Positions 4,408-17,711 of a stretch of 17,711 bases of DNA are shown piece by piece; position 1 is the first letter of the stretch; the number at the start of each line of letters is the position of its first letter. Under the pieces are notes generated by a model. The model was given only the letters and a program-made list of their open reading frames with translations. It did no database searches and was not told where the DNA came from. A program made the position numbers and the translations under genes. Source of the stretch: Patescibacteria group bacterium (GTDB lineage Bacteria > Patescibacteriota > Minisyncoccia > Minisyncoccales > 2-12-FULL-40-12); assembly GCA_038062035.1 (NCBI GenBank), contig JBBTXV010000018.1, positions 5,621-23,331 of the forward strand. Reading direction: 5' to 3'.

Positions 4408-5553
4408 TTATCTATTAAAAGGATTACTAGCTCCCTTGACTTCAAAATGAAGGTGGCAACCAGTCGTTTTTCCGGTATTTCCTATTGTTCCAATTTGCTC
4501 ACCTGCTGAAACTATTTGTCCTGACTGAACCAAAACGGATCCAAGATGATAATAAGCAGTAACCACTTGGTTAGGATGAATAACAGAAATGCTGTTGCCC
4601 GCTCCAGCATTCCAACCGCCAGCCTTAGCCCTTACGATTTCTCCCCCGGCTGCAGCAAAAACAGGCCTGCCGCAACTATTTCCTCCAGGATGAGTCAAAT
4701 CTACGGCATTATACCAATGCAAACCCTGGCTGATTGTATAAGGAGAAGCCAAAGGAAGAATAAAGTAACTGGAGGGAAGAGATATTTGGTTTGGCGAGGA
4801 AGGATTTACGAACTTTTGCTGCTTTTTTGAAGGCGGGGGCATTATGCCATCGGGAATAATTAAAATATCGCCAATATAAATATCGCCCTCGCTTTCCAAT
4901 TCGTTAAAAGCGACGATCTTGCCAATATCGCTTTTATAATTTTTAGCAATCTGGCTTAAAGTTTCTCCTTTTTTAACGTAGTGTAAAATTCCAGAAACCG
5001 GCAAAATAATTAAAGCTTGGCCAGATTTCAGTTTGGATTTTTTGGTCAGGTTATTAGCCCAAATTAAGGTTTCCAAAGAAATACCAAATTTTTCAGCCAC
5101 TGAGACCAAGGTATCGTCCTCTCTGAGGGTATACTCGATAACCTCTTTTCTCAGACTTGATTCAATCCCTTGTCCTGTCAAAACACCAAAGCTATGAGAC
5201 AAAACCATAACTGGGGAAGAAACAGCCATTATGCTGTCTTTTTGAACCAAAACAAGATCTGAAGAATTGTCAAAAGAATTAGGGCCTAAAACAGAAAGAG
5301 ATGAAGTCAAAACAGGCTGATTGATTCCGTCAAAAGAAGAATCTCCTGGCGCATTTGAAATTTGGGCCTGGAGATTTTTGGTTAAAAGAGAAGAATCTAA
5401 GTTTTCTGAAAAAACAATGGGCCTAAAAGCTAAAGCCAATAACGAAATCGCTAAAATTAACCCAAAAAGGAGAAAAGGGTCTTTGAGAGATCCCTTTTTT
5501 TGTTCGTAGATTCGGCGAATTACCTTTTTGAACTTGGCTCCAAAGGAGCTCAA
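4408..5553 (-). CDS. Membrane-anchored peptidoglycan hydrolase with two LysM domains and a C-terminal M23 (LytM-type) metallopeptidase; TTG start
   Basis: There is an N-terminal TM helix (FLLFGLILAISLLALAF). The two LysM-like segments are YTLREDDTLVSVAEKFGISLETLIWAN and HYVKKGETLSQIAKNYKSDIGKIVAFN. The M23 motifs are HWYNAVD...HPGG and GCHLHFEV. The start codon is TTG (plus-strand CAA at 5551-5553) and the first in-frame ATG lies >100 codons downstream. Confidence 0.85.
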   Translation of the reverse strand: MSSFGAKFKKVIRRIYEQKKGSLKDPFLLFGLILAISLLALAFRPIVFSENLDSSLLTKNLQAQISNAPGDSSFDGINQPVLTSSLSVLGPNSFDNSSDLVLVQKDSIMAVSSPVMVLSHSFGVLTGQGIESSLRKEVIEYTLREDDTLVSVAEKFGISLETLIWANNLTKKSKLKSGQALIILPVSGILHYVKKGETLSQIAKNYKSDIGKIVAFNELESEGDIYIGDILIIPDGIMPPPSKKQQKFVNPSSPNQISLPSSYFILPLASPYTISQGLHWYNAVDLTHPGGNSCGRPVFAAAGGEIVRAKAGGWNAGAGNSISVIHPNQVVTAYYHLGSVLVQSGQIVSAGEQIGTIGNTGKTTGCHLHFEVKGASNPFNR

Positions 5554-5791: not shown

Positions 5792-6628
5792 ATGGAACTT
5801 GCTTCGTTAAGAGAAATAAAAAAGATACTCCAAAAAAACCGAACTTCTCCCTCAAAGGGCTTGGGTCAGAATTTTCTAATCAGTCGAACAGCTCTAAGTC
5901 AGTTAATTGGGGCTGCCGAGCTAAAAAGAGAAGATACCGTCCTGGAAATTGGGCCGGGAATCGGAGTTTTAACCTTAGAATTAGCCAAAAGAGTAAAAAA
6001 ATTAATTGCCGTAGAAAAAGACCGAAAAATGTGCCAAATTCTAAAAGAAACTTTGGAAGCTTATAAAAATTTGGAAATTATCAACGCTGATATTTTAAAA
6101 TTTAACCATAATAACTATAAACTAATAACTAAAAACTATAAACTGGTAGCAAATCTTCCTTATTACATTACATCACCTGTAATAAGAAAGTTCTTGGAAG
6201 TTGAAAAACCGCCTGATTTAATGGTTTTAATCGTGCAAAAAGAAGTCGCTCAAAGAATTTGCGCCAAGCCGCCCAAGCTCAATCTTCTGGCGGTCTCCGT
6301 TCAATTGTATGCCAATCCTAAGATTATCTCTTTTGTTCCGAAAAATTCTTTCTGGCCCAAACCCAAGGTTGATGGAGCAATCATTCAAATTACGCAAATA
6401 AAAAAAGATGGAAAAATAGATAATCAAACATTTTTTAAAATCGTGAAAGCAGGATTTTCCCAGCCAAGAAAACAAATTATTAACAACTTGTCTAAAAGGT
6501 TAAAATTAAATAAGATGCAAGCCGAATCTTGGTTAAAATCTTGTAAAATCGAACCTGAACAAAGGGCTGAAACATTAAGCTTATCTGATTGGATTCTGTT
6601 AACAGAAAAATTTGCTATAATAAAATAA
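5792..6628 (+). CDS. rsmA: 16S rRNA (adenine1518/1519-N6)-dimethyltransferase RsmA/KsgA
   Basis: The N-terminal GQNFL motif is present. The SAM-binding motif is LEIGPGIGVLT, the NLPYYITSPVI motif is present, and the C-terminus is helical. The stop TAA at 6626-6628 overlaps the next ATG. Confidence 0.9.
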   Translation: MELASLREIKKILQKNRTSPSKGLGQNFLISRTALSQLIGAAELKREDTVLEIGPGIGVLTLELAKRVKKLIAVEKDRKMCQILKETLEAYKNLEIINADILKFNHNNYKLITKNYKLVANLPYYITSPVIRKFLEVEKPPDLMVLIVQKEVAQRICAKPPKLNLLAVSVQLYANPKIISFVPKNSFWPKPKVDGAIIQITQIKKDGKIDNQTFFKIVKAGFSQPRKQIINNLSKRLKLNKMQAESWLKSCKIEPEQRAETLSLSDWILLTEKFAIIK

Positions 6629-9123
6629 TGCCAAAGAGAGCAATAGGATTTTTTATAATTTTCTCTACGTTTTTTTTATTATTTTCTCTTTTTTCCTCTT
6701 TTGATTTCGCTTTTGCTCAAGGAAGACAATTGGAAATTGATTATCCAAATGTTCCCGGAGCCCCTACTCCAAAAACAACCGCAACCTTATTACCCGATTA
6801 CGTTAAATACGTCTTTAATTTCGGGATAATAATTTTTGGCTTAATAGTTTTGGGCGTTTTAGTCGCAGGGGGAATTAAATATCTTTTATCCACGGGGAAA
6901 CCGGAAGCATTACAAGAAGCCAAGAATCAAATACTTGCCGCTTTTTTGGGAATAATCGTTTTACTTAGCTCTTATTTAATTCTCACCACTATTAATCCCC
7001 AGTTGGTAATTTTTAACATACCGGGACTAACTCAAATTACGGTCTTTCGCTGCACAACCGATGAAAGTTGTAATGGGCGTTTCGGGTGTGAAACGCCGGG
7101 CACTTGTCGTTGCGACCTTGGAATCTGTAGGGCAAAACTGGAACCAAGGGAAACAACTTTAATAGCTTACGAAATCCCCGTAGGGCAACTGATAGAAAAG
7201 GGTGTTCAGAACGAAAACAATATTAACGAGGTAACCATTTTACTTAACGAATTTGAAAAATTTTTGAAAAAGGAAATTCCCGTTGACCCGCCTTCTTATA
7301 GATTATCTGATTTAAGCAAGCATCTTGTGGGCCTAACCGAAGATTGTAGCTGTGATGCCACGGAGGGTATTTGCGCCACTCCTGAAGCCGGAGCCGGAGG
7401 AGTGGGCTGCTTTGGAAATCCTTGTAAAGATTCCGAGGAAGAAATCCAAAAAGCCGTGGATATTACCTCTCAAAAAATAAGAGAGCTTCAAGATTTTAAA
7501 AATGAAGTAAAAAAACAGTTTCAAATTTTTCTGCAAGAAGGAGAAAAATTTTTAAAAGCTAACGAAGAAATAAATGAGTGTATAGAAAATGGGAAACTTT
7601 TAACCTTGGCTGATTATTTAGCTACATCTCAATTTTTTACTGAGCAAGGATGGAAGACGCAACTCAAATCAAACCCATATTTCCCTAGCTCTGGAGGAGA
7701 CGATCTAACATTTTATTGCATAAAAGGAGGAACAATTTTTGACGCGCCGAGAACCAGCTCATTCAATATACCTGAGATTCCGTTAGAGTTAAACCTTGTA
7801 ATTCCAACCGAACCCTTGTTAAGTCCAGAACCATTATCTTGTCCGGCAATTCTCCCGTTAGGCGAAATGCTAGATAATATAACAATTGAATCATACACAG
7901 CCAACGAAGATCTGGAAAGCCTAATCGTTCTTATTGACTTACTCTCTAAAGAACTCCAAAAATTACTTGATTCTGTTTCAAGCTGCAGCAGGAAAGACGC
8001 ATGCAGCATTACTTGCGCAAAGGGACCAAATCCCTGTTTTCCTGAAAGACCCTGCGCTCAACCATGGGGAGTGGGATATCCATGTTTTCGCTGCAACCCT
8101 CTTTCCCTTCCGCCTTGTTTACTCTGTGGACCAGGCATGGGTCTTTCTCCAAATATTCAAGCCAGAGGGGGCGGATCATCTTGTCAGGGCAATCCTGATG
8201 CGCCATACCACGGCTCCCCTTGCCCTCGTGATGATATAGAAAAAACTTTACAAAAGATTAAACTCCTTGATAATGAAATTATTGAACTAATCCAAGAAAC
8301 AAAAAATGGATTTAATGCGAAGCCGTACATAATAGAGACTCCTAAGGAAAATATAAACTTGCTCCAAGGAATTAGAGGGTCAACGGCATTCTGTACCAGC
8401 GATGATATTAATAACCCGGATATTTTTTTGCTTAATTGCCTAGATGCTATAGGAAATGAAGGGCCGGACGGCAACATAATTGGCGACTGCGATCCTCAAA
8501 GCTTTTTTTGCTGTACCGCTGATAAAACAAAAGCGGGTTCAATAAGGCAATCTTTTCCAAGAGAAACACAAGAATTCAACTATTATACTGGCCCTCGTCT
8601 TGAAAACCCTTTTTCTCCTGCTGAAATTAGAAATAATGTTCCTTATTTTAGCCAAAAGGACCCTCTTTGGGCGGGAAGGTCTTATGGGTGCGGAGGGACA
8701 ACAATAAAATCCTCTGGTTGCGGCCCTACTTCTATGGCTATGGTGTTACGACATTACGGCAAAAATGTCGATCCTGTAATCACTGCTGAATGGTCATTAA
8801 GAAACAACTTTCGAGTTTGTAATGCCGGTACTGCCTGGAGTTTTTTCAACAGTATAGCTAAATCTTACGGTTTAAATGGGTGCAAACCTTTAAGCGTGGC
8901 GAATATTGACAATCTAATAGCTAAACTTTCCGATGGACCGATAATCGTTAGCGGCCGAGGAAATCCTCCGTATTCAAAAGGAGGACATTATATTGTTTTA
9001 ACCGGGGCAGATGAAAATTATGTTTATATAAATGATCCGGCACGACCTAAGTTAAAAAGAAAGCTAATTGACGAATTTAGAATAGCTGGGAGAGCAAGAT
9101 TCGCTTGCCAAGTTAAACAATAG
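6628..9123 (+). CDS. Secreted/membrane chimeric protein: Sec signal peptide, a VirB2/TrbC-type pilin-like TM hairpin, a ~520-aa Cys-rich ectodomain and a C-terminal C39-like (papain-fold) cysteine peptidase domain
   Basis: I prefer the start at ATG 6628 (MPKRAIGFFIIFSTFFLLFSLFSSFDFAFA|QG is a textbook signal peptide) over the tracked 6589 start, which overlaps rsmA. A conserved motif LEIDYPNVPGAPTPKTTATLLPDYVKYVF precedes two TM helices separated by STGKPEALQEAKNQ. Multiple Cys clusters follow. The C-terminus contains YFSQKDPLWAG...GCGPTSMAM...GGHYIVLTG. Confidence 0.75.
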   Translation: MPKRAIGFFIIFSTFFLLFSLFSSFDFAFAQGRQLEIDYPNVPGAPTPKTTATLLPDYVKYVFNFGIIIFGLIVLGVLVAGGIKYLLSTGKPEALQEAKNQILAAFLGIIVLLSSYLILTTINPQLVIFNIPGLTQITVFRCTTDESCNGRFGCETPGTCRCDLGICRAKLEPRETTLIAYEIPVGQLIEKGVQNENNINEVTILLNEFEKFLKKEIPVDPPSYRLSDLSKHLVGLTEDCSCDATEGICATPEAGAGGVGCFGNPCKDSEEEIQKAVDITSQKIRELQDFKNEVKKQFQIFLQEGEKFLKANEEINECIENGKLLTLADYLATSQFFTEQGWKTQLKSNPYFPSSGGDDLTFYCIKGGTIFDAPRTSSFNIPEIPLELNLVIPTEPLLSPEPLSCPAILPLGEMLDNITIESYTANEDLESLIVLIDLLSKELQKLLDSVSSCSRKDACSITCAKGPNPCFPERPCAQPWGVGYPCFRCNPLSLPPCLLCGPGMGLSPNIQARGGGSSCQGNPDAPYHGSPCPRDDIEKTLQKIKLLDNEIIELIQETKNGFNAKPYIIETPKENINLLQGIRGSTAFCTSDDINNPDIFLLNCLDAIGNEGPDGNIIGDCDPQSFFCCTADKTKAGSIRQSFPRETQEFNYYTGPRLENPFSPAEIRNNVPYFSQKDPLWAGRSYGCGGTTIKSSGCGPTSMAMVLRHYGKNVDPVITAEWSLRNNFRVCNAGTAWSFFNSIAKSYGLNGCKPLSVANIDNLIAKLSDGPIIVSGRGNPPYSKGGHYIVLTGADENYVYINDPARPKLKRKLIDEFRIAGRARFACQVKQ
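6731..7013 (+). other. VirB2/TrbC-like pilin hairpin module (conserved pre-helix motif plus two TM helices ending in TINPQL) within the 6628-9123 CDS
   Basis: The topology is signal peptide, short conserved motif, TM1, ~14-aa polar loop, TM2. It is paralogous to 12410-12700. Confidence 0.45.
8630..9075 (+). other. C39-like / papain-fold cysteine peptidase domain (Peptidase_C39_2-like) at the C-terminus of the 6628-9123 CDS
   Basis: The motifs are NVPYFSQKDPLWAGRSYGCGGTTIKSSGCGPTSMAMVLRHYG and later GGHYIVLTGADENYVYINDP. This is a putative Cys nucleophile followed by a His, in the order and spacing expected of YvpB-type C39-like domains. Confidence 0.55.
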
Positions 9124-9144: not shown

Positions 9145-12100
9145 ATGTTAAGAGATCTAAAAAAAAGTTTAATATTAAAATATCTAAAAAAAATTAAGTT
9201 TCTAAATACTTATTTTTTAGCTTTGGGAATAATAACAACGATTTTCTTAATTTCTGGTTTCGCTGGAATAAGCCCTCTTTCTGACAAAGTTAAAGTGTTG
9301 GGCCAAGGAATACCTTTGTTTTATTTCCCCAATTTTCCAATAAGATTGGCTTTTTTAGCTAATGAGATCACGACAACCAACGAAGAACTGATTATTCGTA
9401 GTGATGAGCTATCAAAATTCGTCAACGCTTTCGACTGCAAATACGCTCAATCGCAATGCGTGCAGACAACAAAGAAATTGCCAGGAGGAGGACAGCAATC
9501 CATTTGCGAGCCAGGACCAATAAAAGTATTTGGAAGGGTTAATCCTATACCACAAGGCACCACCAATGAAAAAGAAGTTCACTCCGAAGAAATACAATCT
9601 GCAATAAATGATTTAAATATTAAACTTGCCTCCTTGCAAACAACTTTAAGAGGGGAAGTCGAAATTGGCATAGAAAAACAGTTGAAAACTTTAAGGCCTG
9701 AAGACGCTCAAATTATCAGAGACAATTTAGAAAAACTTGATCGGTTAATGTCCGAAATGAGAAATCTAACTGAAAGAAACTCTTCACTACCTAATAAATG
9801 TTCAGTTCAAAGATGCACCCCGGAATGCGAATTAGGCCAAACTTTTACTGCTGAAGCCTGTGTTGGAGCTTCCGGCGAACAAAAACCAATAGAGCTTAAA
9901 TTTAAAGTCGGCGTAGGATTAGATAATTTGAATCTCGGCAGGTTGGGCATAGAAAACATCAATCTTGGCTTACCAGACAAGGTTAATATACCAACTCCCC
10001 AACTTCCCTCTCTCAGTTTCCGTATTCCAAATGCCACCTTAAACTGCCCGACCCAAAGACAACAGATCGTTTTTCATCCATCCACTCCTATCCTACCAGA
10101 CTTGCCAACCATAACTCTGAGTTGTCCTCAATATCAAAGCTATTCATCCTATCAATGCTCTTCTCCTCCCTCGCAAGGAGAAGAAGGGTTTATTGAATTT
10201 GAATGGTGGAATAAAACTTTTGAGCATTTGTCAGGAGAATGTCTTAAAGTTGCTAACAGCGACAGTAAAAGATTAAAAAATGAACAAGGGCAAATTGAAT
10301 ATCAAAAAGCAGTAGAGGGCTGCATGAGCCCAGAGAAGGTTGTCCCGACCACTATTAATGAGTGTGAAGCAAAATGGGTAAGAAAATGTTCTTTCCTTGA
10401 CTGTCGCTGGGAACTCTCCAATCCCCGAGAACAAGAAATCTGTGGTCAGATTGGTCGTTCACCAGACAAAACTCAAAAAGCGGTTAAATGGTGCCAGACA
10501 TTATACCAAGATGAAGGACAAACCCCTCCGGCTACCTGCTCTTCTGAAACAATTCTAACAACTCATCAAAAGTGCAACGAGATAAGAAATTCAGGTAGAG
10601 AAAACGTTCCGCTTTCTTGTAAACTTTTACCGTTATTCGCTGGACAATTAGAAGATCTGCCAGAAGGAACAGTTATAGGTCAAGGAGGAAATTGTCCATC
10701 TCAAAATATTGGGGATTTTCCTATACCAATGGCTGGTTGCGCAATAACCGCTCCATCTATCCCTAAAATAACTTTTCCAACAATAATTATCCCTGACATC
10801 CATCTTCCAACTTTCAGCTTACCTCCTCTCTTTCGGGTAAAATTACCAAATCTTATTTTTGAGGACTTAAATATAGGCGAAATCAACCTTTGCAACTTAG
10901 ACGACTGCAGCGCCCAATTTCCTTACTTAACTTTTAAACCTCCTTCTTTAAAAATCCCTCAAGTAAATGTTCCGCCTGTTACCCTGGAGATTCCAGGCGC
11001 CTCTCCAATAGATATCCAAATAGAACCAATTAATTTCCAGACCTTAAATTTTAACATTCCCCAGTTAATTAACTTGGGATCTTTGGTAACGCCCGAATTA
11101 AAGATACCGGAAATTCCCCTGCCCCAGCCAAGAATTCAATTCTCTTTTCTCGGAATTAATATTGATTTGCTAAATCTACTTCTTGGCCTTTTCAAAACGC
11201 CCCTCAATCTTAATCAGTGCGTGGCTTTGGACGCTAAGCTTGGAGTGCTCGATATTGTTTATCCTGACAAATATTTCCCTTGGCCAGCCTATCCCAAACC
11301 AGGAGAACTCAAATTTTGCAAAAAAGCAAGAGAATGGTGTCAAAGACAAAAAGGATCAATCCAGGAAATAACAACAAAAGCCGCTAGAATTCAAGAGCAA
11401 GTTAATAGCGTTTTTCAGAGCGAAATCCAAACAAAGCTTGATAAGACAGCTGATAGATTAAATCAAAAAATAACCAGAGAAGTTGAAAGAGAACTTGAGA
11501 AAGTTAAAAACGAAATAAGCAAGCAATTGCTCCAACATTTAGGGAAATATGCTCCTCAAAATGTTATACCTCCTTCAGCGCCGGTGCCTGGCGTCTGGGA
11601 AGTTAAAGGAGAACTTCCCTGTCAAGGAATACCGCCTTTAACCGTTTATATGCCTCCGGATTTACAAACAATTAGCATTGATCCTCAATCAATAAATGAA
11701 TTCCTTGAAAAAGAATTTGGAGAAACCTGGCCAACAGAAATTACTATCCGCTGGCCAAAAGATCTAAAAAAGTTCAAGCTGTCCTGTAACGAAAGTAATT
11801 GTGAGGCCTGTGAACAAAGAGGAAATGACGCTTGCCGAGGATTGTTAAGATGGGCGGACTGCCCGACCCTTGCCAATTGGGAAGATTACGCAAAATGCAA
11901 GTTGGATTACAGAATAAACAGCTGTAAAAACGAGTGCAAAAACTGCTTAAGCTATGACCTGCCGTCAGTTCCTTTGTGCGGATTAAGTTACAAAAAAGAA
12001 TTTACTAGAAGACTTCCTGGCCATCAACTATCTGTAACGACGCCAAGAGATCTTCTTTCGGGTTTAAGAAATGTTCGCGAGTGTATTAGTGGGCCACCCA

Positions 12101-12219
12101 AAGGAGGAAATCCTTGCCAGACAGAAGCAGGTCAAATCCAGGCTAATCTTAATAAGATTAAAAGATTATCGGAGGAGATGAAAAACGCTTCCCAAGAGAT
12201 AACTAATTTATTATACTAA
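9145..12219 (+). CDS. Large (1024 aa) signal-anchored, cysteine- and proline-rich extracytoplasmic protein with a coiled-coil segment; a putative surface or adhesin-like component
   Basis: There is an N-terminal TM anchor (FLALGIITTIFLISGFAGI) and >40 Cys. A coiled-coil stretch (EIQSAINDLNIKLASLQTTLRGEVEIGIEKQLKTL) is present. A long run of periodic xIPxxxLPxL motifs (IPKITFPTIIIPDIHLPTFSLPPLF...KIPEIPLPQPRIQF) shares the IPEIPL motif with the preceding CDS. Spacing to its neighbours is tight. Confidence 0.75.
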   Translation: MLRDLKKSLILKYLKKIKFLNTYFLALGIITTIFLISGFAGISPLSDKVKVLGQGIPLFYFPNFPIRLAFLANEITTTNEELIIRSDELSKFVNAFDCKYAQSQCVQTTKKLPGGGQQSICEPGPIKVFGRVNPIPQGTTNEKEVHSEEIQSAINDLNIKLASLQTTLRGEVEIGIEKQLKTLRPEDAQIIRDNLEKLDRLMSEMRNLTERNSSLPNKCSVQRCTPECELGQTFTAEACVGASGEQKPIELKFKVGVGLDNLNLGRLGIENINLGLPDKVNIPTPQLPSLSFRIPNATLNCPTQRQQIVFHPSTPILPDLPTITLSCPQYQSYSSYQCSSPPSQGEEGFIEFEWWNKTFEHLSGECLKVANSDSKRLKNEQGQIEYQKAVEGCMSPEKVVPTTINECEAKWVRKCSFLDCRWELSNPREQEICGQIGRSPDKTQKAVKWCQTLYQDEGQTPPATCSSETILTTHQKCNEIRNSGRENVPLSCKLLPLFAGQLEDLPEGTVIGQGGNCPSQNIGDFPIPMAGCAITAPSIPKITFPTIIIPDIHLPTFSLPPLFRVKLPNLIFEDLNIGEINLCNLDDCSAQFPYLTFKPPSLKIPQVNVPPVTLEIPGASPIDIQIEPINFQTLNFNIPQLINLGSLVTPELKIPEIPLPQPRIQFSFLGINIDLLNLLLGLFKTPLNLNQCVALDAKLGVLDIVYPDKYFPWPAYPKPGELKFCKKAREWCQRQKGSIQEITTKAARIQEQVNSVFQSEIQTKLDKTADRLNQKITREVERELEKVKNEISKQLLQHLGKYAPQNVIPPSAPVPGVWEVKGELPCQGIPPLTVYMPPDLQTISIDPQSINEFLEKEFGETWPTEITIRWPKDLKKFKLSCNESNCEACEQRGNDACRGLLRWADCPTLANWEDYAKCKLDYRINSCKNECKNCLSYDLPSVPLCGLSYKKEFTRRLPGHQLSVTTPRDLLSGLRNVRECISGPPKGGNPCQTEAGQIQANLNKIKRLSEEMKNASQEITNLLY

Positions 12220-12226
12220 GGTAATT

Positions 12227-13693
12227 ATGAAAGGTACGAGGTTTTTATTCGTTTTATTAATTATTGCTTTCTTGTTTTTTTTATCGGGTAATTTTGTCTC
12301 AGCTCAACAAGTATGCGATAAAGATCAAGATTGTCCAGGAGGTCAAAGCTGTATATCTGATCCTTGCAATACCGACCCTAACGCCCCAAAAATATGCGGT
12401 AAAGGCAGGGCTTTGGAAATCTGCTATCCTCAAATACCAGGAGTCGCTACACCAAAAACAACCGGTGAGCCCTTACCAGATTACATAAATTATATTTTCC
12501 GCTTCGCAATTGCTGCGATAGGCTTTGTTGTCCTTGGAGCTATGGTTTATGCCGGCGTCAGCTATTTTCTTTCATTCAACAACGCAGCGAAACTTCAAGA
12601 TGCCAAAGAAGGAATTTCTGCCGCTTTTTTGGGTGGCGTTATTTTGTTGGCGGCTTTTCTAATTTTTAATACGATAAATCCGCAATTAACTATTCTTGGA
12701 CCTCCAAAAGCTGATCTTCTGTGGGGGACAACTCAACCCGGAATATATATTTGTACTTATCCCGTAGATACAGGTTATTTAACTCAAATTAACCAAGACC
12801 TCAAAATCCAACCAACCTTCGGAGATCTAGGAGCAATTATTGATGCTTATACCAATGAAACGGATCCAAAAAGACAGGTTGAAGCAACTCAGGCATTACA
12901 AAGAATAATGTACAAGGACTCTTCGAATCTTTGCCAATTGCTCTTGAGCTCCACAAATCTCAGAACCCCGTTGCTGCCAAATTATACAATGTTCTCTATC
13001 CCAAAAGTATTCCCTGACCCGAATGATCCGCAAAAGCGCGTAGCAGAATTTCTTGAAGCGGTAATTTTGCATGAAAAAGATGATTTTAAGGGGGAACAAA
13101 AATTATACCCAATACCAAAAACGGTTGGAAGAAAACTTGTGCTCTTTGATCAAATCGACGGATTTAAAGCGGGCAACGGCTTAAATGACATCGGGGGAAG
13201 GGCTAAATCAATTACTCGTATAAAAAAGGCGGATGTGCCAGAAGCAAGCCCTCCAGGGATAACCTTATTCTCCTGCCCCAACTGGAATCAAAGCAAGGGC
13301 TTATGCCCAAAAGGATTGACTGGAACGCCTATCCCCCTTATTGATGCAAGTTTTGCCACTGACGGCGCTGACATTAAACTCTGGGGGAAAAGCGAACTTA
13401 AATCGGGCCAAGAATCTTTAGCTGAAAATGTCCGCTCTATTAGAATCACGCCATTGGGCAGTTTTCTTGCTATAGTATATGAAAAAGACGATGCAAAAGG
13501 AAATGGGGGAATTTTATATTCTGACGCTGCTGATATTAGGGGAAATAAATTGGGGCTTAAAATGTGTGGAACAAACTGTCCTTCGGGAATACTTCAATCC
13601 ACCCCTTTCTTCTTTATTCTTGACAGGATAAGAGGTATTGATTGTACCCCCTGTATAAATTCAATGACAGTTATTAAGGGAATAAAATTATGA
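12227..13693 (+). CDS. Secreted/membrane protein: signal peptide, a Cys-rich N-terminal knot, a VirB2/TrbC-like pilin hairpin (a paralog of the module in 6628-9123) and a ~330-aa ectodomain
   Basis: The signal peptide is MKGTRFLFVLLIIAFLFFLSGNFVSA|QQ, followed by CDKDQDCPGGQSCISDPC. The segment LEICYPQIPGVATPKTTGEPLPDYINYIF...AAFLGGVILLAAFLIFNTINPQL aligns with the 6731-7013 module. The stop overlaps the next start (ATGA at 13690-13693). Confidence 0.8.
   Translation: MKGTRFLFVLLIIAFLFFLSGNFVSAQQVCDKDQDCPGGQSCISDPCNTDPNAPKICGKGRALEICYPQIPGVATPKTTGEPLPDYINYIFRFAIAAIGFVVLGAMVYAGVSYFLSFNNAAKLQDAKEGISAAFLGGVILLAAFLIFNTINPQLTILGPPKADLLWGTTQPGIYICTYPVDTGYLTQINQDLKIQPTFGDLGAIIDAYTNETDPKRQVEATQALQRIMYKDSSNLCQLLLSSTNLRTPLLPNYTMFSIPKVFPDPNDPQKRVAEFLEAVILHEKDDFKGEQKLYPIPKTVGRKLVLFDQIDGFKAGNGLNDIGGRAKSITRIKKADVPEASPPGITLFSCPNWNQSKGLCPKGLTGTPIPLIDASFATDGADIKLWGKSELKSGQESLAENVRSIRITPLGSFLAIVYEKDDAKGNGGILYSDAADIRGNKLGLKMCGTNCPSGILQSTPFFFILDRIRGIDCTPCINSMTVIKGIKL
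12410..12700 (+). other. Second copy of the pilin-like hairpin module
   Basis: The shared pattern with the first copy is LEIxYPxxPGxxTPKTTxxxLPDYxxYxFxF - TM1 - loop - AAFLGxxxLLxxxLIxxTINPQL. Confidence 0.45.
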
Positions 13694-15144
13694 TTCAATT
13701 CTTGGGAGATGCCATTTTAGGTGCCATCTTTCTTGTGCCGGCGATTTTAACCGCTCTACTTATAAGTCTTAGCCAGGCTGCAGCTTTTTTAATGGGGATT
13801 ATCTTAGATTGGATTATTAGCCCTAACTTTACCTCTTATAGCTACACCAAACCCTGCAATCCCCCTGACAGAATAGTCGGAGATTGTAATCCAGTTGTCG
13901 GAATAGGATTAAATATCACTCAAGGCTTTGTAAACTTACTCTTAGTAGTAGTTCTGGTTTATGTTGCTATTTCCATAGCTTTAAGATTAGGAGGGGAAAC
14001 TAATGCGAAAAAGATATTCGTCAATCTAATCATCGTTGCTTTATTGGTGAATTTTGCTCCGGTTCTCATTGGCTTGATCGTGGATGCTACTAATATTGTG
14101 ATGAACTTTTTCTTTTCTTCTATCCAAGGGGGAGCAGCTGGAATATTAAATCAGGGCGCAACAATTTTTGATACGGTAAAAGGCGCTGTACTAGCCTCGG
14201 GAGCAGGATTCAAAGATAGACTGGGATTATTAGCAGCTGGAGCTTTCACAGTAAGCCTCAACCTCTTTATTGCTTTTATCTTTTTGATTTTTGCCGGGCT
14301 CTTCGTTTTCAGATATATTGCCATCTGGATCTTAGTAATCTTATCCCCAATCGCCCTTGTCCTTTGGGTCTTACCCGGCAAGCCAAGACAGTTCTGGAAT
14401 ATGTGGTGGAATAATCTTATCCAATGGTCAATTATTGGAATCCCAATTTCTTTCTTTCTATATTTAGCGCTTGCAAGTTTCAGCGCCATTAATAGATCTT
14501 TCCTAGGACGAATAGAACAATCTTCGGGTATTTTTCCGGCCGCTGATTTAACCTTCGTTGACCGACTCATTCCCTATGCTGTAGTAAGTGCTTTTCTTGG
14601 TATGGGATTTTTAGTGAGCTTGGCAACCTCAGCCATGGGCGCTAACGCCATTATTGCCGGAGGTATGGCAAGCGGTAAATTTACACGCGATAGAGCTTGG
14701 GGGGGAACAAAAAGGGCTAGTAGGGCCACATGGCGAGGAACTAGAAACGCAGGAAGCCAAGTTATGGGTCGTTATGCGGCGGGAAGACAAGCCGGCCAAG
14801 GAAGAATCGGAGCTTTTGGTCGAGCAGTAGGGGGAGCAACTGGAGCAGGAGTACGCCAAGTAGGAAGCACAGTAGCAGGCTGGGCAAGCGTCAGAAGCCA
14901 ATATAGAACAGCGAGACAAGCTGGCGTTGGAAAAATACGGTCAGTATTTATGACAGCACCAGCCAGATCAGCTGCTGGTGCTGCTAAGGGTGTAACTTCT
15001 TTCCTTGGCGGTATGGCAGGCGCATGGGTACAAGGAGCTACCAAGAAGAAGGGTAAAGCGAAAGGAAAAGCATTCTGTAGTACTTGTGGAGCTACTGCTC
15101 CATCGGGATCGAATTTCTGTCAAAGTTGTGGATCGCCAATTTAA
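13690..15144 (+). CDS. Polytopic VirB6/TrbL-like membrane protein with a Gly/Ala/Arg-rich low-complexity tail and a C-terminal zinc ribbon
   Basis: There are ~8 hydrophobic helices across aa 1-330, including YIAIWILVILSPIALVLWVLPG. One extracytoplasmic loop contains a Cys pair (KPCNPPDRIVGDCNP). The tail (aa ~330-455) is rich in G/A/R/T with repeated RxAG and GAxG. The final 22 aa read CSTCGATAPSGSNFCQSCG (CxxC-x10-CxxC). The GC-rich DNA at 14640-15060 matches the tail. Confidence 0.75.
   Translation: MIQFLGDAILGAIFLVPAILTALLISLSQAAAFLMGIILDWIISPNFTSYSYTKPCNPPDRIVGDCNPVVGIGLNITQGFVNLLLVVVLVYVAISIALRLGGETNAKKIFVNLIIVALLVNFAPVLIGLIVDATNIVMNFFFSSIQGGAAGILNQGATIFDTVKGAVLASGAGFKDRLGLLAAGAFTVSLNLFIAFIFLIFAGLFVFRYIAIWILVILSPIALVLWVLPGKPRQFWNMWWNNLIQWSIIGIPISFFLYLALASFSAINRSFLGRIEQSSGIFPAADLTFVDRLIPYAVVSAFLGMGFLVSLATSAMGANAIIAGGMASGKFTRDRAWGGTKRASRATWRGTRNAGSQVMGRYAAGRQAGQGRIGAFGRAVGGATGAGVRQVGSTVAGWASVRSQYRTARQAGVGKIRSVFMTAPARSAAGAAKGVTSFLGGMAGAWVQGATKKKGKAKGKAFCSTCGATAPSGSNFCQSCGSPI
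15073..15141 (+). other. C-terminal zinc-ribbon (CxxC-x10-CxxC) of the VirB6-like protein
   Basis: FCSTCGATAPSGSNFCQSCGSPI is a canonical short zinc-ribbon spacing. Confidence 0.6.
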
Positions 15145-15170: not shown

Positions 15171-15605
15171 ATGATGGAAGATTTTAAATCTGAGGTTGAA
15201 AAAATAAAAGAGCAGTACCCGGAATTTTTTGAAAAGGTTGATCCCGAACTCTTGAAGTTTATTACCTCTGAAAAATTTTTATTTGATGTCGCTCAAATCT
15301 GTTTGGATAATGGAATAACAGACGAGGAGCAAACGGAAAAAATTACTTATAGGGTCGCCTTGGCTTTATTCGGAGAGGTGCCCAAAGAAAATTTAGCCCA
15401 GATTCTTGAACTCGGAGCCGGATTGGATCCTCAAACTGCTAAGGCAATGCATCTTGAGTTCAACCGACTTATTTTTTCTCAACTGAAAGAACCGAAAAAA
15501 AGACCGGAGGTTAAAATGGAATTTTCTCCGGGCTTATTAGAAGAGACCGAAATAGAAAGCGAAAAACCTAAAAGAAAAGATATCTATCACGAGCAGATAC
15601 AATAA
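15171..15605 (+). CDS. Small acidic hypothetical protein (144 aa), probably cytoplasmic
   Basis: It is an intact ORF with a clean start and stop, no TM helix and no motif I recognise. A hairpin terminator follows it. Confidence 0.55.
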   Translation: MMEDFKSEVEKIKEQYPEFFEKVDPELLKFITSEKFLFDVAQICLDNGITDEEQTEKITYRVALALFGEVPKENLAQILELGAGLDPQTAKAMHLEFNRLIFSQLKEPKKRPEVKMEFSPGLLEETEIESEKPKRKDIYHEQIQ

Positions 15606-15645: not shown

Positions 15646-15672
15646 AATGAATTCAATGAATTCAACGAATCA
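15642..15672. repeat. Short tandem repeat, about 3 copies of TTCAATGAA / TTCAACGAA
   Basis: The sequence ttcaatgaattcaatgaattcaacgaatcaacc was read directly. It overlaps the stop and last codons of the minus-strand SPFH gene. Confidence 0.4.
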
Positions 15673-16954
15673 ACCAGTAAATCATTGAACCAACCATGGA
15701 AAATATCGCCAGAAGACCTAAGGCCTTCTTACCCAAACTAACATCCTCTTCCGGGTTCGGTATTATCGCCGGGTATCTTGACTTTACTTTTCTTACTGGC
15801 GGAACTTGATCTTCAAGATGCTCTTGCGAGCTTGCTCCTCCTCCTGAAGACTCGTCTTTCTTCTCCGCCGCCTCGGATGATTTTTGCTCTGGCGTCACTC
15901 CTTCACCAACCGGTGGCATTCCTTTATAAGCAGCAATGATCTTCAAGATACCAGCGAGGACTCCGCCATCGCCTCCTTCAGCTCCCGGAGTTTCGATCCT
16001 CAGATAGGATTTTGACTCCATCGAAAGCTTACTCATTGTGCTATCTATTATAACTTTATGCCTCCGGTAGAACTCTTCGGGGCTTGCTTGAAGCTCCTTC
16101 TTAACTTGCTCTGGGGATTTACCTGCACTAGCCACAGATGCAATAACTGTCCCCATTATTTCTTCGGCCCTACCAGCCGCTATTAACTCTTGCTTTCTTT
16201 TAGCTGAAGCCGCCCTCTGATAATCTTCGGACAGATCAACCTCTTGAATCTCAATGCCCTTATCTGCTAATTTCATCCCCCACTTTTGTAAGGTTTCTTC
16301 AATCACCTTAGCTCCAGTTAAAAGACCCTCTTGGTTTTCTGCCCAAAGAGATGCGCCTTTAAGCTTAAGAAGCGTATCAAGGTCACGACTAGTGACAATT
16401 GAACGCATCTCTGCCTTTATTTTGGCGAGAACATCTTCAATTGGGGTCGGAGGAGCAATAAATAAAAAAGAATACGGATTGTCGATCCTTAACGTGATTA
16501 AAACCAAAACGTCCACTGGGATTCTTTCTGGCGGTGCGGTTTCAACAGCCGTAAGCTTAATCGCGTAAACCGCTGATTTCAAGAGAACGTGCCTCATCCT
16601 TAGTTCCTCATGAAACTCAGGGTTTGTATCACCGCTTTCTCTTAAACGAATATCGGTCCAGCGGTTCTTGTACTGGTGGATCGCATGAAATGGCCAAATG
16701 CCATACAAATACAATCCTCCAACAATACGCAAGCCCGTCCAAACTTCGTCTCTCTCCCTACGATCGGGGTCTTCTTCGTCAGTTAAAATCTTCCAACTAT
16801 GATCCATCCAGTGCTTTTCCCACGAAAAAAGGATCTTTTTGAACTTTCCGAAAGACACTACTGCCTTTGCGGTTCCTTCGTTAACCGTGGTAAAACATCT
16901 AATAAACCAGAAAAAAAACGCTAACGATATTCCGAGCGTTATCAGCCATTCCAT
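15662..16954 (-). CDS. SPFH / band-7 (stomatin-prohibitin-flotillin-HflK/C) domain membrane protein with both N- and C-terminal TM segments
   Basis: The N-terminal TM is followed by VNEGTAKAVVSFGKF, which is the typical SPFH domain entry. A long helical Ala/Glu/Lys-rich segment follows (YQRAASAKRKQELIAAGRAEE). The C-terminal hydrophobic segment is GLLAIFSMVGSMIYWLI. The RBS is GAGGTG, 7 nt before the ATG. Confidence 0.75.
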   Translation of the reverse strand: MEWLITLGISLAFFFWFIRCFTTVNEGTAKAVVSFGKFKKILFSWEKHWMDHSWKILTDEEDPDRRERDEVWTGLRIVGGLYLYGIWPFHAIHQYKNRWTDIRLRESGDTNPEFHEELRMRHVLLKSAVYAIKLTAVETAPPERIPVDVLVLITLRIDNPYSFLFIAPPTPIEDVLAKIKAEMRSIVTSRDLDTLLKLKGASLWAENQEGLLTGAKVIEETLQKWGMKLADKGIEIQEVDLSEDYQRAASAKRKQELIAAGRAEEIMGTVIASVASAGKSPEQVKKELQASPEEFYRRHKVIIDSTMSKLSMESKSYLRIETPGAEGGDGGVLAGILKIIAAYKGMPPVGEGVTPEQKSSEAAEKKDESSGGGASSQEHLEDQVPPVRKVKSRYPAIIPNPEEDVSLGKKALGLLAIFSMVGSMIYWLIR

Positions 16955-16957
16955 TTC

Positions 16958-17031
16958 TTTTCACCTCTTCTGTAGATTTTCAGTTCTCAAGGAACTATTA
17001 AAAATATATCATCTATTGAAATCTTTGTCAA
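16958..17031 (-). promoter_or_regulatory. Promoter/leader cassette copy 1 for the SPFH gene, read on the minus strand: -35 TTGACA, 17-bp spacer, extended -10 TGaTATATT, a short leader with a 5-bp hairpin, SD GAGGTG
   Basis: The minus-strand sequence is TTGACAaagatttcaatagaTGaTATATTtttaatAGTTCcttgaGAACTgaaaatctacagaaGAGGTGaaaagaaATG. Copy 2 at 17371-17444 is identical. Confidence 0.6.
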
Positions 17032-17107: not shown

Positions 17108-17368
17108 CTAATCTCTCTGGACCACACAAATGTCGTAATCAATTTTTCTCTCCTTACCATCTATCACAGTTTGAATCAATTCGGTCGAAGGATTTGCATC
17201 GCGCAATAAAATCTTCTCCGTTTTGCATCTTAGACAAATAAGGCGAATAAATAGACTGTCTTCAGTGATCTTTATTCTTCCCCCTATGCATTCTCGATGA
17301 AACATCTCTAAATCTTTAAAGCTAAATTCTTCATCTTTACTCTTTTTCCTCACTTCGATCGTGAACAT
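17108..17368 (-). CDS. Small hypothetical protein (~86 aa from the ATG at 17366-17368; the track's 89-aa version starts at a GTG inside the SD) with 5 Cys including a CLRC pair
   Basis: GAGGTG lies 6 nt upstream of the ATG (MFTIEV...), so the GTG at 17375-17377 is more likely part of the RBS. There is no TM helix. It is driven by the duplicated promoter cassette. Confidence 0.5.
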   Translation of the reverse strand: MFTIEVRKKSKDEEFSFKDLEMFHRECIGGRIKITEDSLFIRLICLRCKTEKILLRDANPSTELIQTVIDGKERKIDYDICVVQRD

Positions 17369-17370
17369 CT

Positions 17371-17444
17371 TTTTCACCTCTTCTGTAGATTTTCAGTTCT
17401 CAAGGAACTATTAAAAATATATCATCTATTGAAATCTTTGTCAA
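17371..17444 (-). promoter_or_regulatory. Promoter/leader cassette copy 2, identical to 16958-17031, driving the small Cys-containing protein
   Basis: There is a 74/74 identity with copy 1 at an offset of 413 bp. The -35/-10/hairpin/SD layout is the same. Confidence 0.6.
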
Positions 17445-17521: not shown

Positions 17522-17711
17522 ATGAATTTTCAGATTCCCCAATTTATTGAACAAGAAGCAAAAATTTTAGGGCCTTTTACTTTCAAACAAACTCTTTGGG
17601 TAGTCGGGGTCGGGATAATTATATTTTTTCTTTATTATTCTTTAGCCAAAACAAACCCTGTTCTTTTTATCATTATAACGGTATTTTTGGCTGGGACTGG
17701 CTCAGCTTTTG
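17522..17711 (+). CDS. PrgI-family (VirB3-like) small membrane protein, 3'-partial; it runs off the window
   Basis: MNFQIPQFIEQEAKILGPFTFKQTLWVVGVGIIIFFLYYSLAKTNPVLFIIITVFLAGTG matches the conserved PrgI N-terminus (a short amphipathic start, GPFTFKQ, then two TM helices). In monoderm conjugation systems PrgI precedes the VirB4-like ATPase. Confidence 0.55.
   Translation, partial: MNFQIPQFIEQEAKILGPFTFKQTLWVVGVGIIIFFLYYSLAKTNPVLFIIITVFLAGTGSAF

Follow-up and report, generated by a model that had tools for sequence, protein, structure and literature searches.

A pilin-type hairpin of the Patescibacterial type IV secretion system carries a head of two beta-gamma-crystallin-type domains

Few machines are known to be indispensable to Patescibacteria as epibionts. 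[quoted passage not shown] A contig from groundwater Patescibacteria, of which we analysed a stretch of 17,711 nucleotides (the window), carries a conserved chromosomal T4SS cluster in which a two-helix hairpin of the pilin type occurs in two genes, each time ahead of a different extracytoplasmic region. A first-pass annotation saw in this pair a conserved anchor with a variable head, that is, a family of interchangeable surface heads mounted on one membrane or polymerisation module. What are these proteins, how old is the pair, and what might a secretion system do with a pilin-type hairpin that bears so large a domain? Here we show that the second protein belongs to the Patescibacterial T4SS, is exported by Sec and joins a bitopic hairpin to a 330-aa head of two beta-gamma-crystallin-type domains, and we propose that it most likely serves as a pilin-like subunit, recruited by the T4SS, for the display of an adhesive or structural head.

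The gene occupies positions 12227–13693 of the + strand as an intact ATG open reading frame encoding 488 aa, a hairpin module followed by the crystallin-type head. Its product is publicly recorded as 'hypothetical protein AAB565_01190' of a Patescibacteria group bacterium, exists in identical copy (P0001) on 3–5 public contigs and has 50 full-length homologues at 26–44% identity. The paralogue (6628–9123, + strand) consists of a pilin module, a long helical middle and, at the C terminus, a papain-like (C39-like) domain, assigned by BLASTP, Pfam and Foldseek. Its start is most likely ATG 6628, giving 831 aa as in public gene calls, rather than TTG 6589, which would give 844 aa. BLASTP of the 488-aa protein against the 844-aa reading returned one significant segment (aa 58–177 against 43–156; 58 of 120 residues identical, 48%; E = 1e-30), and over a 103-aa module core the two genes are 51% identical, in agreement with the earlier claim of a second hairpin copy on a different extracytoplasmic domain. 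Both modules have the pre-helix motif, LEICYPQIPGVATPKTTGEPLPDYINYIF in the 488-aa protein and LEIDYPNVPGAPTPKTTATLLPDYVKYVF as its counterpart in the paralogue, and both end in TINPQL, as had been quoted. The ~330 aa that follow the module have no counterpart in the first gene at the level of sequence, as had been claimed, the remaining BLASTP segments all having E ≥ 0.7.

The N terminus of the 488-aa protein reads as a Sec-type signal peptide (aa 1–26; 12227–12304, + strand) with a hydrophobic core, LFVLLIIAFLFFL, modelled as a helix over aa 4–20 by AF2, and with a predicted cut after VSA26. An A-x-A-like site can be aligned over the 50 orthologues, with A26 conserved in at least 90% of them, and cleavage there is probable. 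In the ortholog alignment there follows an optional Cys-rich mini-domain (aa 27–58; 12305–12400, + strand; C30, C36, C42, C47 and C57), present in about 40–46% of the orthologues; the 831-aa paralogue lacks this extra insert of ~30 aa between signal peptide and module. A further cysteine, C66, lies just past it, inside the pre-helix motif. Pfam matches to 'Nodulin_late' are judged spurious, being weak, below cut-off and reflective only of the signal peptide and the pattern and spacing of the cysteines. The pre-helix motif itself, LE-x-x-YP ... PG ... P-x-Y-x-x-Y-x-F (aa 63–91; 12413–12499, + strand), is modelled at low confidence (pLDDT 56–61); in the alignment of the 50 orthologues L63, E64, Y67, P68 and Y89 are invariant, and P84, Y86 and F91 are conserved in at least 90%. 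PGxxTPKTT, by contrast, had been suggested to be conserved and to mark a point of processing or glycosylation, a proposal that did not survive the alignment: TPKTT varies among the 50 orthologues, the proline recurring and Thr-Val doing so more weakly. Because this motif usually lies 2–5 residues after the predicted signal-peptidase site, ordinary Sec processing explains the mature N terminus; O-glycosylation of a TPKTT threonine is possible.

Two membrane helices (aa 85–115 and 120–149; 12479–12673, + strand) joined by an S-x-G-N-P loop make up the PF18895 T4SS_pilin core, as located by AF2 and Pfam, and are modelled with a pLDDT of ~90. The loop is conserved as S-x-G-N-P-x-K, with K122 in 90% and K/R127 in 88% of the 50 orthologues. 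At the outer end of helix 2 stands TINPQL (aa 149–154; 12671–12688, + strand), of which the ortholog alignment leaves N151 and P152 invariant and T149, I150, Q153 and L154 at 90% or above; a low-confidence linker (aa 155–170, pLDDT 59) leads from there into the head.

This module is already known, PF18895 being the VirB2-like pilin of the Patescibacterial T4SS (PMC12102498, PMC10633639). Against the curated Pfam cut-off of 26.6 bits, the matches in the 488-aa protein (aa 94–150; 18.5 bits, E = 0.0022) and in the 831-aa paralogue (24.3 bits) both fall below the line, whereas P0054, an orthologue of the paralogue, scores 29.1 bits and lies above it; 47 of the 50 full-length orthologues of the 488-aa protein match the family, with a best E of 9e-10. 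By transitive homology, membership of the 488-aa protein in PF18895 appears solid. One orthologue (P0013) is named 'pilin' by NCBI, and there are weak matches to the Mycoplasma ICE pilin-like family NF045849. The canonical VirB2/TrbC family PF04956 gave no match at E ≤ 0.1, and a 23-sequence module profile run against all PDB sequences found no solved T4SS pilin, only chance membrane hairpins at E ≥ 0.12, an outcome that is uninformative given how far pilins diverge. The layout required of T4SS_pilin, a signal peptide and two hydrophobic helices with a short loop, is present; the small size of such pilins (roughly 100–180 aa) is exceeded by a protein of 488 aa whose module spans aa ~58–160.

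Further copies, which the first-pass annotation had proposed to seek with a profile, are abundant. A profile of the two modules searched against 1.84 billion proteins retrieved 20,377 cluster representatives at E ≤ 1e-3, with 3,031 at ≤ 1e-10 and 76 at ≤ 1e-30. Across this wider family the same module bears beta-gamma-crystallin, C39-like, NlpC/P60, M74, SLT, Peptidase_Mx1 and dockerin heads. Some members are tandem polypeptides of 2–6 modules (P0087 has four, followed by an SLT domain), and others are short and head-less (P0102, 133 aa).

Might the pair in this window nevertheless be a recent local duplication, a young tandem whose cassette is diverging and whose module has no wider significance? 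The two copies lie 3 kb apart on the same strand, and this is the one observation that favours such an origin. The modules, however, are 68–84% identical to their orthologues in other genomes and only 51% identical to each other; the order pilin-hydrolase, ~1000-aa protein, pilin-head and VirB6-like gene is fixed in 11 independent loci from different Patescibacteria; and a module spread over 20,377 clusters is hardly of local significance. Exactly two module ORFs are present in 10 of the 11 loci. We therefore give a recent duplication next to no credence. A duplication of this kind, with no further homologues, is what the first-pass annotation had said would overturn its reading, and the data clearly contradict it. 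On these comparisons the two genes are old, separately conserved lineages, each keeping its own head, rather than a locally diversifying pair, and the idea of interchangeable heads applies to the wider family, with its many heads, and not to these two neighbours.

The head comprises two beta-gamma-crystallin-like domains, aa 171–335 (12737–13231, + strand) and aa 343–487 (13253–13687, + strand). The AF2 model of the protein has a pLDDT of 87 overall and ~95 in the head, and all of the top 25 Foldseek matches are beta-gamma-crystallins (probability 0.75–1.00). The best structural matches are the Ca-binding structural domains Flavollin, Clostrillin and Protein S. Each domain has the two Greek-key motifs and the wedge-shaped beta-sandwich of the crystallin architecture. 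The signature (Y/F/W)-x-x-x-x-(Y/F)-x-G, with its Ser, is present as HEKDDFKG (aa 282–289), in which His replaces the first aromatic residue of domain 1, and as YEKDDAKG (aa 418–425); H282, E283 and G289, together with the conserved Ser residues S242, S328 and S404, are invariant or kept in at least 90%. At the sequence level Pfam Crystall (PF00030) matches one of the 50 orthologues (E = 0.005) and not the 488-aa protein, and a profile search of the PDB reached 3hzb at E = 0.59 only. Inspection of the alignment showed that the Ca2+ motif N/D-N/D-x-x-S/T-S of microbial beta-gamma-crystallins is not conserved; the stretches at its positions are A-E-N-V-R-S (aa 399–404), G-R-A-K-S (aa 324–328) and C-I-N-S (aa 476–479), and of these the final Ser alone is conserved.

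Domain 1 contains a helical insertion of 45 residues (aa 182–228) stapled by the invariant pair C176–C236, and domain 2 has the pairs 350–360, 447–476 and 451–473. Across the 50 orthologues such pairs are kept or lost together: 176–236 is present in 50 of 50, 447–476 has both cysteines in 45 and neither in 5, and the corresponding counts, with the remainder last, are 46/3/1 for 451–473 and 41/6/3 for 291–427. Because the cysteines are co-kept and co-lost, the head is taken to be disulfide-bonded and hence extracytoplasmic. Microbial beta-gamma-crystallins such as Flavollin (3hzb), Clostrillin (3snz/3i9h), Protein S (1nps) and Spherulin 3a (1hdf) share with it the (Y/H)-x-x-x-x-F-x-G hairpin signature and the conserved Ser, and Protein S and the lens crystallins also have two tandem domains; the head differs from the microbial proteins in its 45-residue helical insertion, its extra disulfides, its lack of a Ca2+ site and its attachment to a T4SS pilin hairpin. 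It is a conserved family in its own right, detected by a head HMM in 130 of the 209 collected proteins, once per syntenic locus. A head-only search of a 5.8-billion protein index returned the query alone, which reflects the sensitivity limit of a word index and not uniqueness. In the literature searched we found no description of a T4SS pilin hairpin fused to a crystallin head or to a hydrolase.

Among proteins of beta-gamma fold there are toxins and inhibitors, including killer-toxin-like proteins of yeast and Streptomyces and the protease inhibitor SMPI. The fold and the cell-wall hydrolase partner are the two points that could recommend the head as a host-directed toxin or enzyme inhibitor instead of an adhesin or structural cap. 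Its best structural matches, however, are Flavollin, Clostrillin and Protein S and not the toxin members, no immunity-like gene is evident, and the gene is a single-copy, slowly evolving core member of the cluster, unlike typical polymorphic toxins; we regard a toxin or inhibitor role as very improbable.

The paralogue bears a different kind of head. Its module lies at nt 6715–7023 and its C39-like domain at about nt 8635–9042, where Pfam finds Peptidase_C39_2 (E = 3.5e-22) and Foldseek retrieves papain-like proteases; the ~550 aa of the middle, modelled at moderate confidence (pLDDT 71.5), gave no PDB fold match outside the C-terminal protease domain. In orthologues the place of the C39-like domain is taken by NlpC/P60 (E ~1e-7) or by Peptidase_M74 (E = 1e-7), a swap pattern of hydrolases from which we infer that this head acts on peptidoglycan. 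A role of the C39-like domain as a pilin-processing protease is unlikely, since orthologues have the NlpC/P60 or M74 murein peptidases in its stead. Like VirB1 and the PrgK/TcpG/TrsG hydrolases, the paralogue places a membrane-tethered hydrolase domain within a T4SS cluster, and enzymes of its type are interchangeable (NlpC/P60, SLT, M74 or C39-like); in contrast to those proteins, its tether is a VirB2-like hairpin and not a single helix, and a ~550-aa helical Cys-rich spacer precedes the enzyme.

The junction between hairpin and head invites a further reading, in which the protein is a precursor cut at or just after TINPQL, so that a mature pilin of ~90 aa polymerises and the crystallin head (in the paralogue, the hydrolase) is released as a secreted factor. 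The invariant N151 and P152 fall exactly at this junction and the low-confidence linker follows them; genuine short pilins such as P0102 end 8–10 residues past a TINPQL-type motif; tandem-module polypeptides could be polyproteins; and canonical TrbC/VirB2 pilins are C-terminally processed. No protease, however, can be assigned to the cut, the C39-like domain being replaced among orthologues as described and so no dedicated pilin-processing enzyme, and the NP motif can equally be read as a helix cap at the membrane surface. We consider release of the head quite improbable.

The surroundings of the gene tie it to the T4SS. The cluster runs rsmA, 831-aa pilin-hydrolase, 1024-aa protein, 488-aa pilin-head, VirB6-like, 144-aa, SPFH and PrgI/VirB3, with the genes from rsmA to the 144-aa ORF closely spaced on the + strand as a single run; a promoter and terminator scan found nothing specific to the 488-aa gene. 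A KsgA/RsmA, dnaA neighbourhood, as here, has been reported for the Patescibacterial T4SS (PMC12102498). Between the two module genes, in 11 loci, lies a Cys-rich protein of 1024 aa with one N-terminal membrane helix (9145–12219, + strand), which matches no Pfam or NCBIfam family; comparison revealed no kinship with the 831-aa paralogue. On the other side, the ATG of a VirB6/TrbL-like polytopic membrane protein of 484 aa with a C-terminal zinc ribbon (13690–15144, + strand) overlaps the stop codon of the 488-aa gene (ATGA, 13690–13693), and in 12 of 12 loci the VirB6-like gene follows the pilin-head gene by ≤ 21 nt. Its assignment draws on the sequence, which has a weak NCBIfam pLS20_p028 match, and on an orthologue in locus L004, 54% identical, that carries Pfam TrbL_3. 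The run closes with a soluble protein of 144 aa (15171–15605, + strand), syntenic in L009, L012 and L015 and with no family match in Pfam or NCBIfam. Convergent with the operon is an SPFH/Band-7 membrane protein (15662–16954, − strand; Pfam Band_7, E = 2.5e-6), syntenic in L004, L009, L012 and L015, and the contig end cuts the start of a PrgI/VirB3-like gene (17522–17710, + strand; Pfam PrgI, E = 8e-6, 26.8 bits against a cut-off of 27). VirB4 lies off this contig and is linked by synteny, with PrgI, TraC-like and VirB4 genes 2–6 kb downstream in L004, L012 and L013.

The nearest described relatives are the T4SS_pilin proteins of Patescibacteria/CPR (Wang et al. 2023, PMC10633639; Quinonero-Coronel et al. 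2025, PMC12102498), which belong to the same phylum, have the same signal peptide, two hydrophobic helices and short basic loop, and occur in the same setting beside VirB3, VirB4 and VirB6, near rsmA/dnaA. Their arrays comprise 2–11 genes with a mean identity of 25% and a maximum of 54% (PMC10633639, PMC12102498); here, too, one cluster holds divergent paralogues, the two modules being 51% identical. Those pilins have been treated as small, whereas the present module is the N-terminal fifth of 488 aa and, in the paralogue, is prolonged by ~700 aa to a hydrolase; moreover, in this lineage both fusions are the only pilin modules in the cluster. With canonical VirB2/TrbC/TraA (PF04956 and relatives) the protein shares a predicted topology, termini outside and basic loop inside, and the partners VirB6, VirB3 and VirB4, although no sequence similarity is detectable and the host is monoderm here and Gram-negative there. 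The VirB6-based recruitment model of R388 serves as mechanistic template: VirB2 is membrane-embedded, is recruited by VirB6 and VirB3, is extracted with VirB4 and is assembled from a base of VirB6, with VirB5 forming the tip (PMC9259494).

Taken as a whole, the evidence is in our judgement best explained, with somewhat better than even confidence, by a T4SS hairpin that is lifted into a short pilus- or stalk-like assembly with its heads outside or at the tip. Sec would insert the 488-aa protein with both hairpin ends outward, as in VirB2, leaving the conserved Lys/Arg-bearing loop towards the cytoplasm and the head to fold and oxidise outside the cell. The VirB6-like platform and the VirB3/VirB4 ATPase would engage the hairpin as they do VirB2 pilins, and would lift it from the membrane into a short assembly crossing the cell wall. 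The C-terminal heads would then lie on the outside or tip of this structure, the crystallin head as a rigid adhesive or structural cap, of which the adhesin role is purely our conjecture, and the hydrolase head of the paralogue would cleave (host) peptidoglycan where contact is made. VirB5 at the T4SS tip and FimH-type adhesins of chaperone-usher pili offer a functional analogy, each joining a polymerisation or anchor module to a distal binding domain in low copy beside a platform; folds and assembly chemistry are unrelated, and we claim no homology. As no head-less pilin was found in the cluster of this lineage, a short, low-copy, head-decorated structure is favoured over a long homopolymeric pilus. 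Several points count against this explanation: the sub-threshold PF18895 score of the 488-aa protein, the lack of a sequence link to canonical VirB2/TrbC, the placing of VirB4 by synteny in other genomes, the non-conserved Ca2+ motif, and the difficulty of fitting 35 kDa of head per subunit into the tight five-start packing that known conjugative pili show. We know of no canonical conjugative pilin with a 35-kDa C-terminal domain, only of short engineered C-terminal epitope fusions to F-pilin.

Bulky heads on both hairpin proteins of the cluster, with no head-less pilin within ±10 kb in 10 of the 11 loci, would also suit a hairpin that stays in the membrane without polymerising and tethers surface domains beside the VirB6-like channel. 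Polypeptides of 2–6 tandem modules are awkward as pilus subunits and acceptable as multi-hairpin anchors, and pili are generally absent from Gram-positive T4SSs (PMC12102498, PMC12857230). Yet the hairpin is conserved beyond the needs of an anchor, with LE..YP, G and NP invariant and 50–60% identity between lineages that share only ~30% in their heads; the basic loop, itself conserved, matches the loop that binds lipid in the lumen of pilins; short relatives such as the 133-aa P0102 have no head to tether; and in the Saccharibacterium S. epibionticum pilin arrays are essential (PMC10633639). A permanently membrane-bound hairpin is thus a possibility that we entertain with some doubt. Proteins tethered in this way would span the envelope as fixed parts of a monoderm T4SS and would compare with membrane-anchored components of the PrgK/TcpG type.

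A more speculative reading, which we think fairly unlikely, treats the VirB2-like hairpin of this large Patescibacterial lineage as a T4SS-extractable handle and not as a filament block, by which VirB4/VirB6 would draw covalently attached cargo from the membrane and push it through the wall of the symbiont onto the host surface. In the 488-aa protein the cargo would be a binder of crystallin fold, and in the paralogue a peptidoglycan hydrolase of exchangeable type. If true, type IV secretion would have a new mode, in which pilin-fused effectors are displayed on a short pilus, and there would be a concrete, testable answer to the role of the essential, relaxase-less T4SS of CPR bacteria.

The module and the T4SS cluster were already known, and the basic classification is unchanged. 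When 'VirB2 pilins' of CPR genomes are counted by HMM, large multidomain surface proteins such as these are pooled with true small pilins. In this lineage, widespread in groundwater and freshwater, the cluster has no pilin-like genes other than the two fusions, one to a crystallin-fold surface domain and one to swappable cell-wall hydrolases. The pair offers concrete candidates for the part of the T4SS that meets the host, and suggests that the system may serve the presentation of binding and lytic domains rather than DNA transfer.

The open reading frame at 12227–13693 (+ strand) is intact and encodes a 488-aa protein that has an identical counterpart, annotated as "hypothetical protein", in a Patescibacteria (CPR) groundwater MAG from Hainich well H51 (GCA_964361475.1). 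Compared by BLASTP with the product of the reading frame at 6589/6628–9123, for which public gene calls place the start at ATG 6628 and thus give 831 aa, it yields a single significant segment, aa 58–177 against aa 43–156 of the longer 844-aa reading (58/120 identical, 48%; E 1e-30), the remaining segments being noise (E ≥ 0.7). The first-pass annotation had described a common N-terminal module followed by unrelated sequence, and this is borne out by the lone segment and by the strings it quoted, LEICYPQIPGVATPKTTGEPLPDYINYIF occupying aa 63–91 and TINPQL aa 149–154 of the 488-aa protein, which has some 30 additional, Cys-rich residues separating its signal peptide from the module. The two copies share 51% identity over the 103-residue module core, and same-genome pairs on five other contigs share 45–62%. 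As each module is closer to its nearest orthologs (68–78% for the 488-aa protein, 68–84% for the 831-aa protein) than to the other, these identities indicate that the duplication is ancient and that both lineages have been retained together. A recent local duplication without homologs elsewhere is excluded by the same identities and by the existence of the orthologs.

The module belongs to a known family of pilin-like T4SS hairpins of Patescibacteria. Pfam PF18895 (T4SS_pilin) matches across both helices at 18.5 bits in the 488-aa protein and 24.3 bits in the 831-aa protein, neither reaching the curated cut-off (26.6 bits), and an NCBIfam model of pilin-like conjugal transfer proteins from Mycoplasma ICEs matches both weakly. 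PF18895 is matched by 47 of the 50 full-length orthologs of the 488-aa protein (best E 9e-10), one ortholog of the 831-aa paralog exceeds the cut-off (29.1 bits) and one ortholog is named "pilin" by NCBI. The assignment is firm at the family level. The family also includes short true pilins, such as a 133-aa protein (P0102) that ends 8 residues past TINPQL. VirB2-like pilins have been identified through PF18895 or PF04956 in 1,948 Patescibacterial assemblies, often as arrays of 2–11 divergent genes near virB4 (mean identity 25%, maximum 54%) and commonly beside dnaA and ksgA/rsmA (PMC12102498); in Southlakia epibionticum, such an array inside the T4SS cluster is essential for epibiotic growth (PMC10633639). 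We looked for sequence similarity linking the module with canonical VirB2/TrbC or with a solved T4SS pilin and found none; we therefore use "VirB2-like" by architecture, context and Pfam family, not by demonstrated homology to the Gram-negative pilins.

A profile built from the two copies retrieved 20,377 cluster representatives at E ≤ 1e-3, and 3,031 at 1e-10, from 1.84 billion proteins. Among the proteins recovered are single polypeptides with two to six tandem modules (P0085–P0096, P0107 and P0108), including one with six modules within 552 aa (P0107) and one in which four modules precede an SLT lytic transglycosylase (P0087); these could be either polyproteins or multi-hairpin anchors.

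Gene order ties the module proteins to a T4SS. In the window, a K/E-rich coiled-coil protein (105–2465, +), a DksA/TraR zinc finger (2469–2828, +), a ComM/YifB ATPase (2841–4406, +), a LysM-M23 peptidase (4408–5553, −) and RsmA (5792–6628, +) are followed by the 831-aa module protein (6628–9123, +), which ends in a Peptidase_C39_2 domain (E 3.5e-22), a 1,024-aa Cys-rich protein lacking a family match (9145–12219, +), the 488-aa protein, a 484-aa polytopic membrane protein (13690–15144, +), a 144-aa protein (15171–15605, +), an SPFH protein (15662–16954, −) and the first 63 codons of a PrgI/VirB3-like gene (17522–17710, +; Pfam PrgI E 8e-6). Full-length homologs (26–44% identity, 87–99% coverage), together with a search in which each species was represented by one genome, gave 14 further loci, 11 of which (L004, L007 and L009–L016) keep the order and strand of a four-gene core: a module protein of 750–860 aa, a protein of 870–1,130 aa, a module-plus-head protein of 400–570 aa and a VirB6-like protein of 500–760 aa, usually with ComM, LysM-M23 (on the opposite strand) and RsmA upstream. 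The L004 ortholog of the 484-aa protein matches Pfam TrbL_3. The VirB6-like gene begins within 21 nt of the head gene or overlaps it in 12/12 loci, its start in the window overlapping the stop of the 488-aa gene at ATGA (13690–13693). PrgI, a TraC-like protein, a VirB4 ATPase and an approximately 146-aa protein lie 2–6 kb downstream in L004, L012 and L013, and L010 and L011 end in VirB4 fragments; as the window stops inside the PrgI/VirB3-like gene, with TraC-like and VirB4 genes next in the syntenic loci, the contig breaks off partway through the T4SS core. In other lineages (L018–L020), arrays of module proteins with other tails directly follow VirB3, TraC-like, VirB4 and p146 genes. Using a 179-sequence module HMM with filters off, we find exactly two module ORFs in each syntenic locus and no head-less pilin within ±10 kb, apart from one extra 165-aa copy in L014.

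Several neighbours have features of their own. The 1,024-aa protein, invariably located between the two pilin-module genes (11 loci), combines a single N-terminal membrane helix with a coiled-coil segment; a family search returned no known family, and it is probably another surface component of the T4SS. The VirB6/TrbL-like protein, whose orthologs span 497 to 761 aa, ends in a tail rich in Gly, Ala and Arg with a zinc ribbon at the C terminus (Pfam Zn_Ribbon_1 E 1.5e-5), an appendage uncommon among VirB6-type proteins. The LysM-M23 peptidase and the SPFH/Band-7 protein flank the operon, are syntenic in many loci and possibly belong to the system as accessory components; one published count of VirB1-like proteins includes M23/LysM proteins (PMC12102498). 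A perfect 74-nt direct repeat (16958–17031 and 17371–17444) carries in each copy, on the minus strand, a near-consensus promoter (TTGACA, 17 nt, TATATT, upstream TG) and a ribosome-binding site. One copy is immediately upstream of the SPFH gene and the other upstream of an 89-aa ORF (17108–17377, −) whose L010 homolog is 55% identical; the arrangement resembles a duplicated promoter/5′UTR cassette. The Lys/Glu-rich coiled-coil protein (786 aa, membrane helix near aa 545–570) is internally repetitive: ATPQEKKELETQRWASEEKRKRVEKERWEKEEK, for one, recurs as a pair of copies that differ slightly, and its gene has a 42-nt tandem repeat (584–666). Purine skew in the region is extreme (AT skew about 0.6, GC skew about 0.35). 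In some records (L008, CAZRJS010000075.1, and several of "binchicken" MAGs), contigs bearing the gene pair, which is typically Patescibacterial, are assigned to "Candidatus Woesearchaeota archaeon" or "Candidatus Saccharibacteria", probably through binning or labelling artefacts.

The C-terminal 330 residues form a conserved head. An alignment of 50 sequences reveals the blocks PGIYIC, T-x-F-x-IP, HEKDxFxG, RS-x-T, G-x-x-LY-x-C, N-x-RS-x-x-I-x-P-x-G-x-x-FA, CG-x-x-C and C-x-PC-x-x-SM-x-V-x-KG, and an AlphaFold2 model built on it has a mean pLDDT of 87 (about 95 in the head; pTM 0.69). Fold searches are concordant: Nitrollin, Spherulin 3a, Hahellin and Ciona crystallin appear among the matches, alignments to two-domain lens crystallins span 154–159 residues, and, independently, the top 25 Foldseek matches are exclusively βγ-crystallins; a sequence profile matches 3hzb weakly (E 0.59). 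We read the predicted head as two βγ-crystallin-type domains, at aa ~171–335 (with a helical insertion at aa 182–228) and aa ~343–487, that keep the hairpin signature and structural serines of this fold; inspection of the ortholog alignment shows that the canonical Ca2+-binding motif is not kept. Cysteines are retained or lost jointly across orthologs, the pattern expected of disulfides: both are present in all 50 sequences for 176–236, in 45 for 447–476 (neither in 5), in 46 for 451–473 (neither in 3, one in 1), in 40 for 350–360 (neither in 8, one in 2) and in 41 for 291–427 (neither in 6, one in 3), a pair that the window protein lacks. Together with the signal peptide and two-helix hairpin, this pattern points to a head outside the cytoplasmic membrane.

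PGxxTPKTT had been proposed as a conserved processing or glycosylation site. TPKTT is not conserved in the family, whose consensus there is IPG-x-x-x-P-x-T-V-x-x-G-L-P-x-Y-V-x-Y-I-F with the Pro and Thr-Val moderately conserved. The invariant residues are instead L63, E64, Y67 and P68 at one end and N151 and P152 at the opposite end. Because the 831-aa paralog, like most orthologs, has LE..YP starting 2–5 residues past an A-x-A-type signal-peptidase site, ordinary Sec processing explains the mature N terminus; were there a second site, which we regard as a minor alternative, the invariant NP at the hairpin/head junction would be the better candidate.

The suggestion of interchangeable heads does not fit these two genes but holds within the 831-aa lineage and across the wider family. 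Grouped by tail, the 209 proteins gathered fall into the crystallin-head type (130), the 831-aa type (54) and ten small groups. Each syntenic locus has one match to the head HMM, in every case preceded by a module, so for these two genes module and head travel together; in P0086 and P0090, two modules precede the same head. Within the 831-aa lineage, a conserved body of about 650 aa bears different terminal enzymes at the same position: the papain-fold Peptidase_C39_2 in the window (8635–9042), NlpC/P60 in P0054 and P0058, and an M74 murein endopeptidase in P0056. This swap argues for peptidoglycan hydrolysis as their predicted common function. Elsewhere in the family, module proteins terminate in Peptidase_Mx1, in dockerin or, where four modules stand in tandem, in an SLT lytic transglycosylase.

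We show the domain architecture, conservation, predicted fold and operon context of this gene, its tight coupling to a VirB6-like gene and its proximity to VirB3/VirB4. It very probably encodes a PF18895-type T4SS component with an extracytoplasmic βγ-crystallin head. In the R388 model, VirB2 residing in the membrane is recruited by VirB6 α1 and VirB3; VirB4 takes part in its extraction, after which it is stacked onto a base of VirB6, with VirB5 occupying the tip (PMC9259494). The hairpin of the 488-aa protein may be handled like VirB2; with both hairpin termini outward, its C-terminal extension would end on the outside or tip of the assembly. As none of the hairpins in the cluster lacks a bulky head, a stalk or stub that is short and low in copy number would be favoured over a long homopolymer; at the point of host contact it would present a rigid binder of crystallin fold together with an enzyme that cuts the wall. 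The main rival holds that the hairpin is merely a static anchor beside the channel. We place moderate confidence in the display/adhesion mechanism, and the combined proposal, component and mechanism together, is somewhat favoured.

The module, its paralogy and the cluster have been published already, and the system is not new in kind. The literature searched contained no module fused to a conserved two-domain crystallin head, no paired pilin–hydrolase fusion with swappable enzymes and no report of a cluster without head-less pilins in this lineage. For those who study T4SSs or CPR bacteria, the fusion is of use in asking what role the essential CPR T4SS plays.
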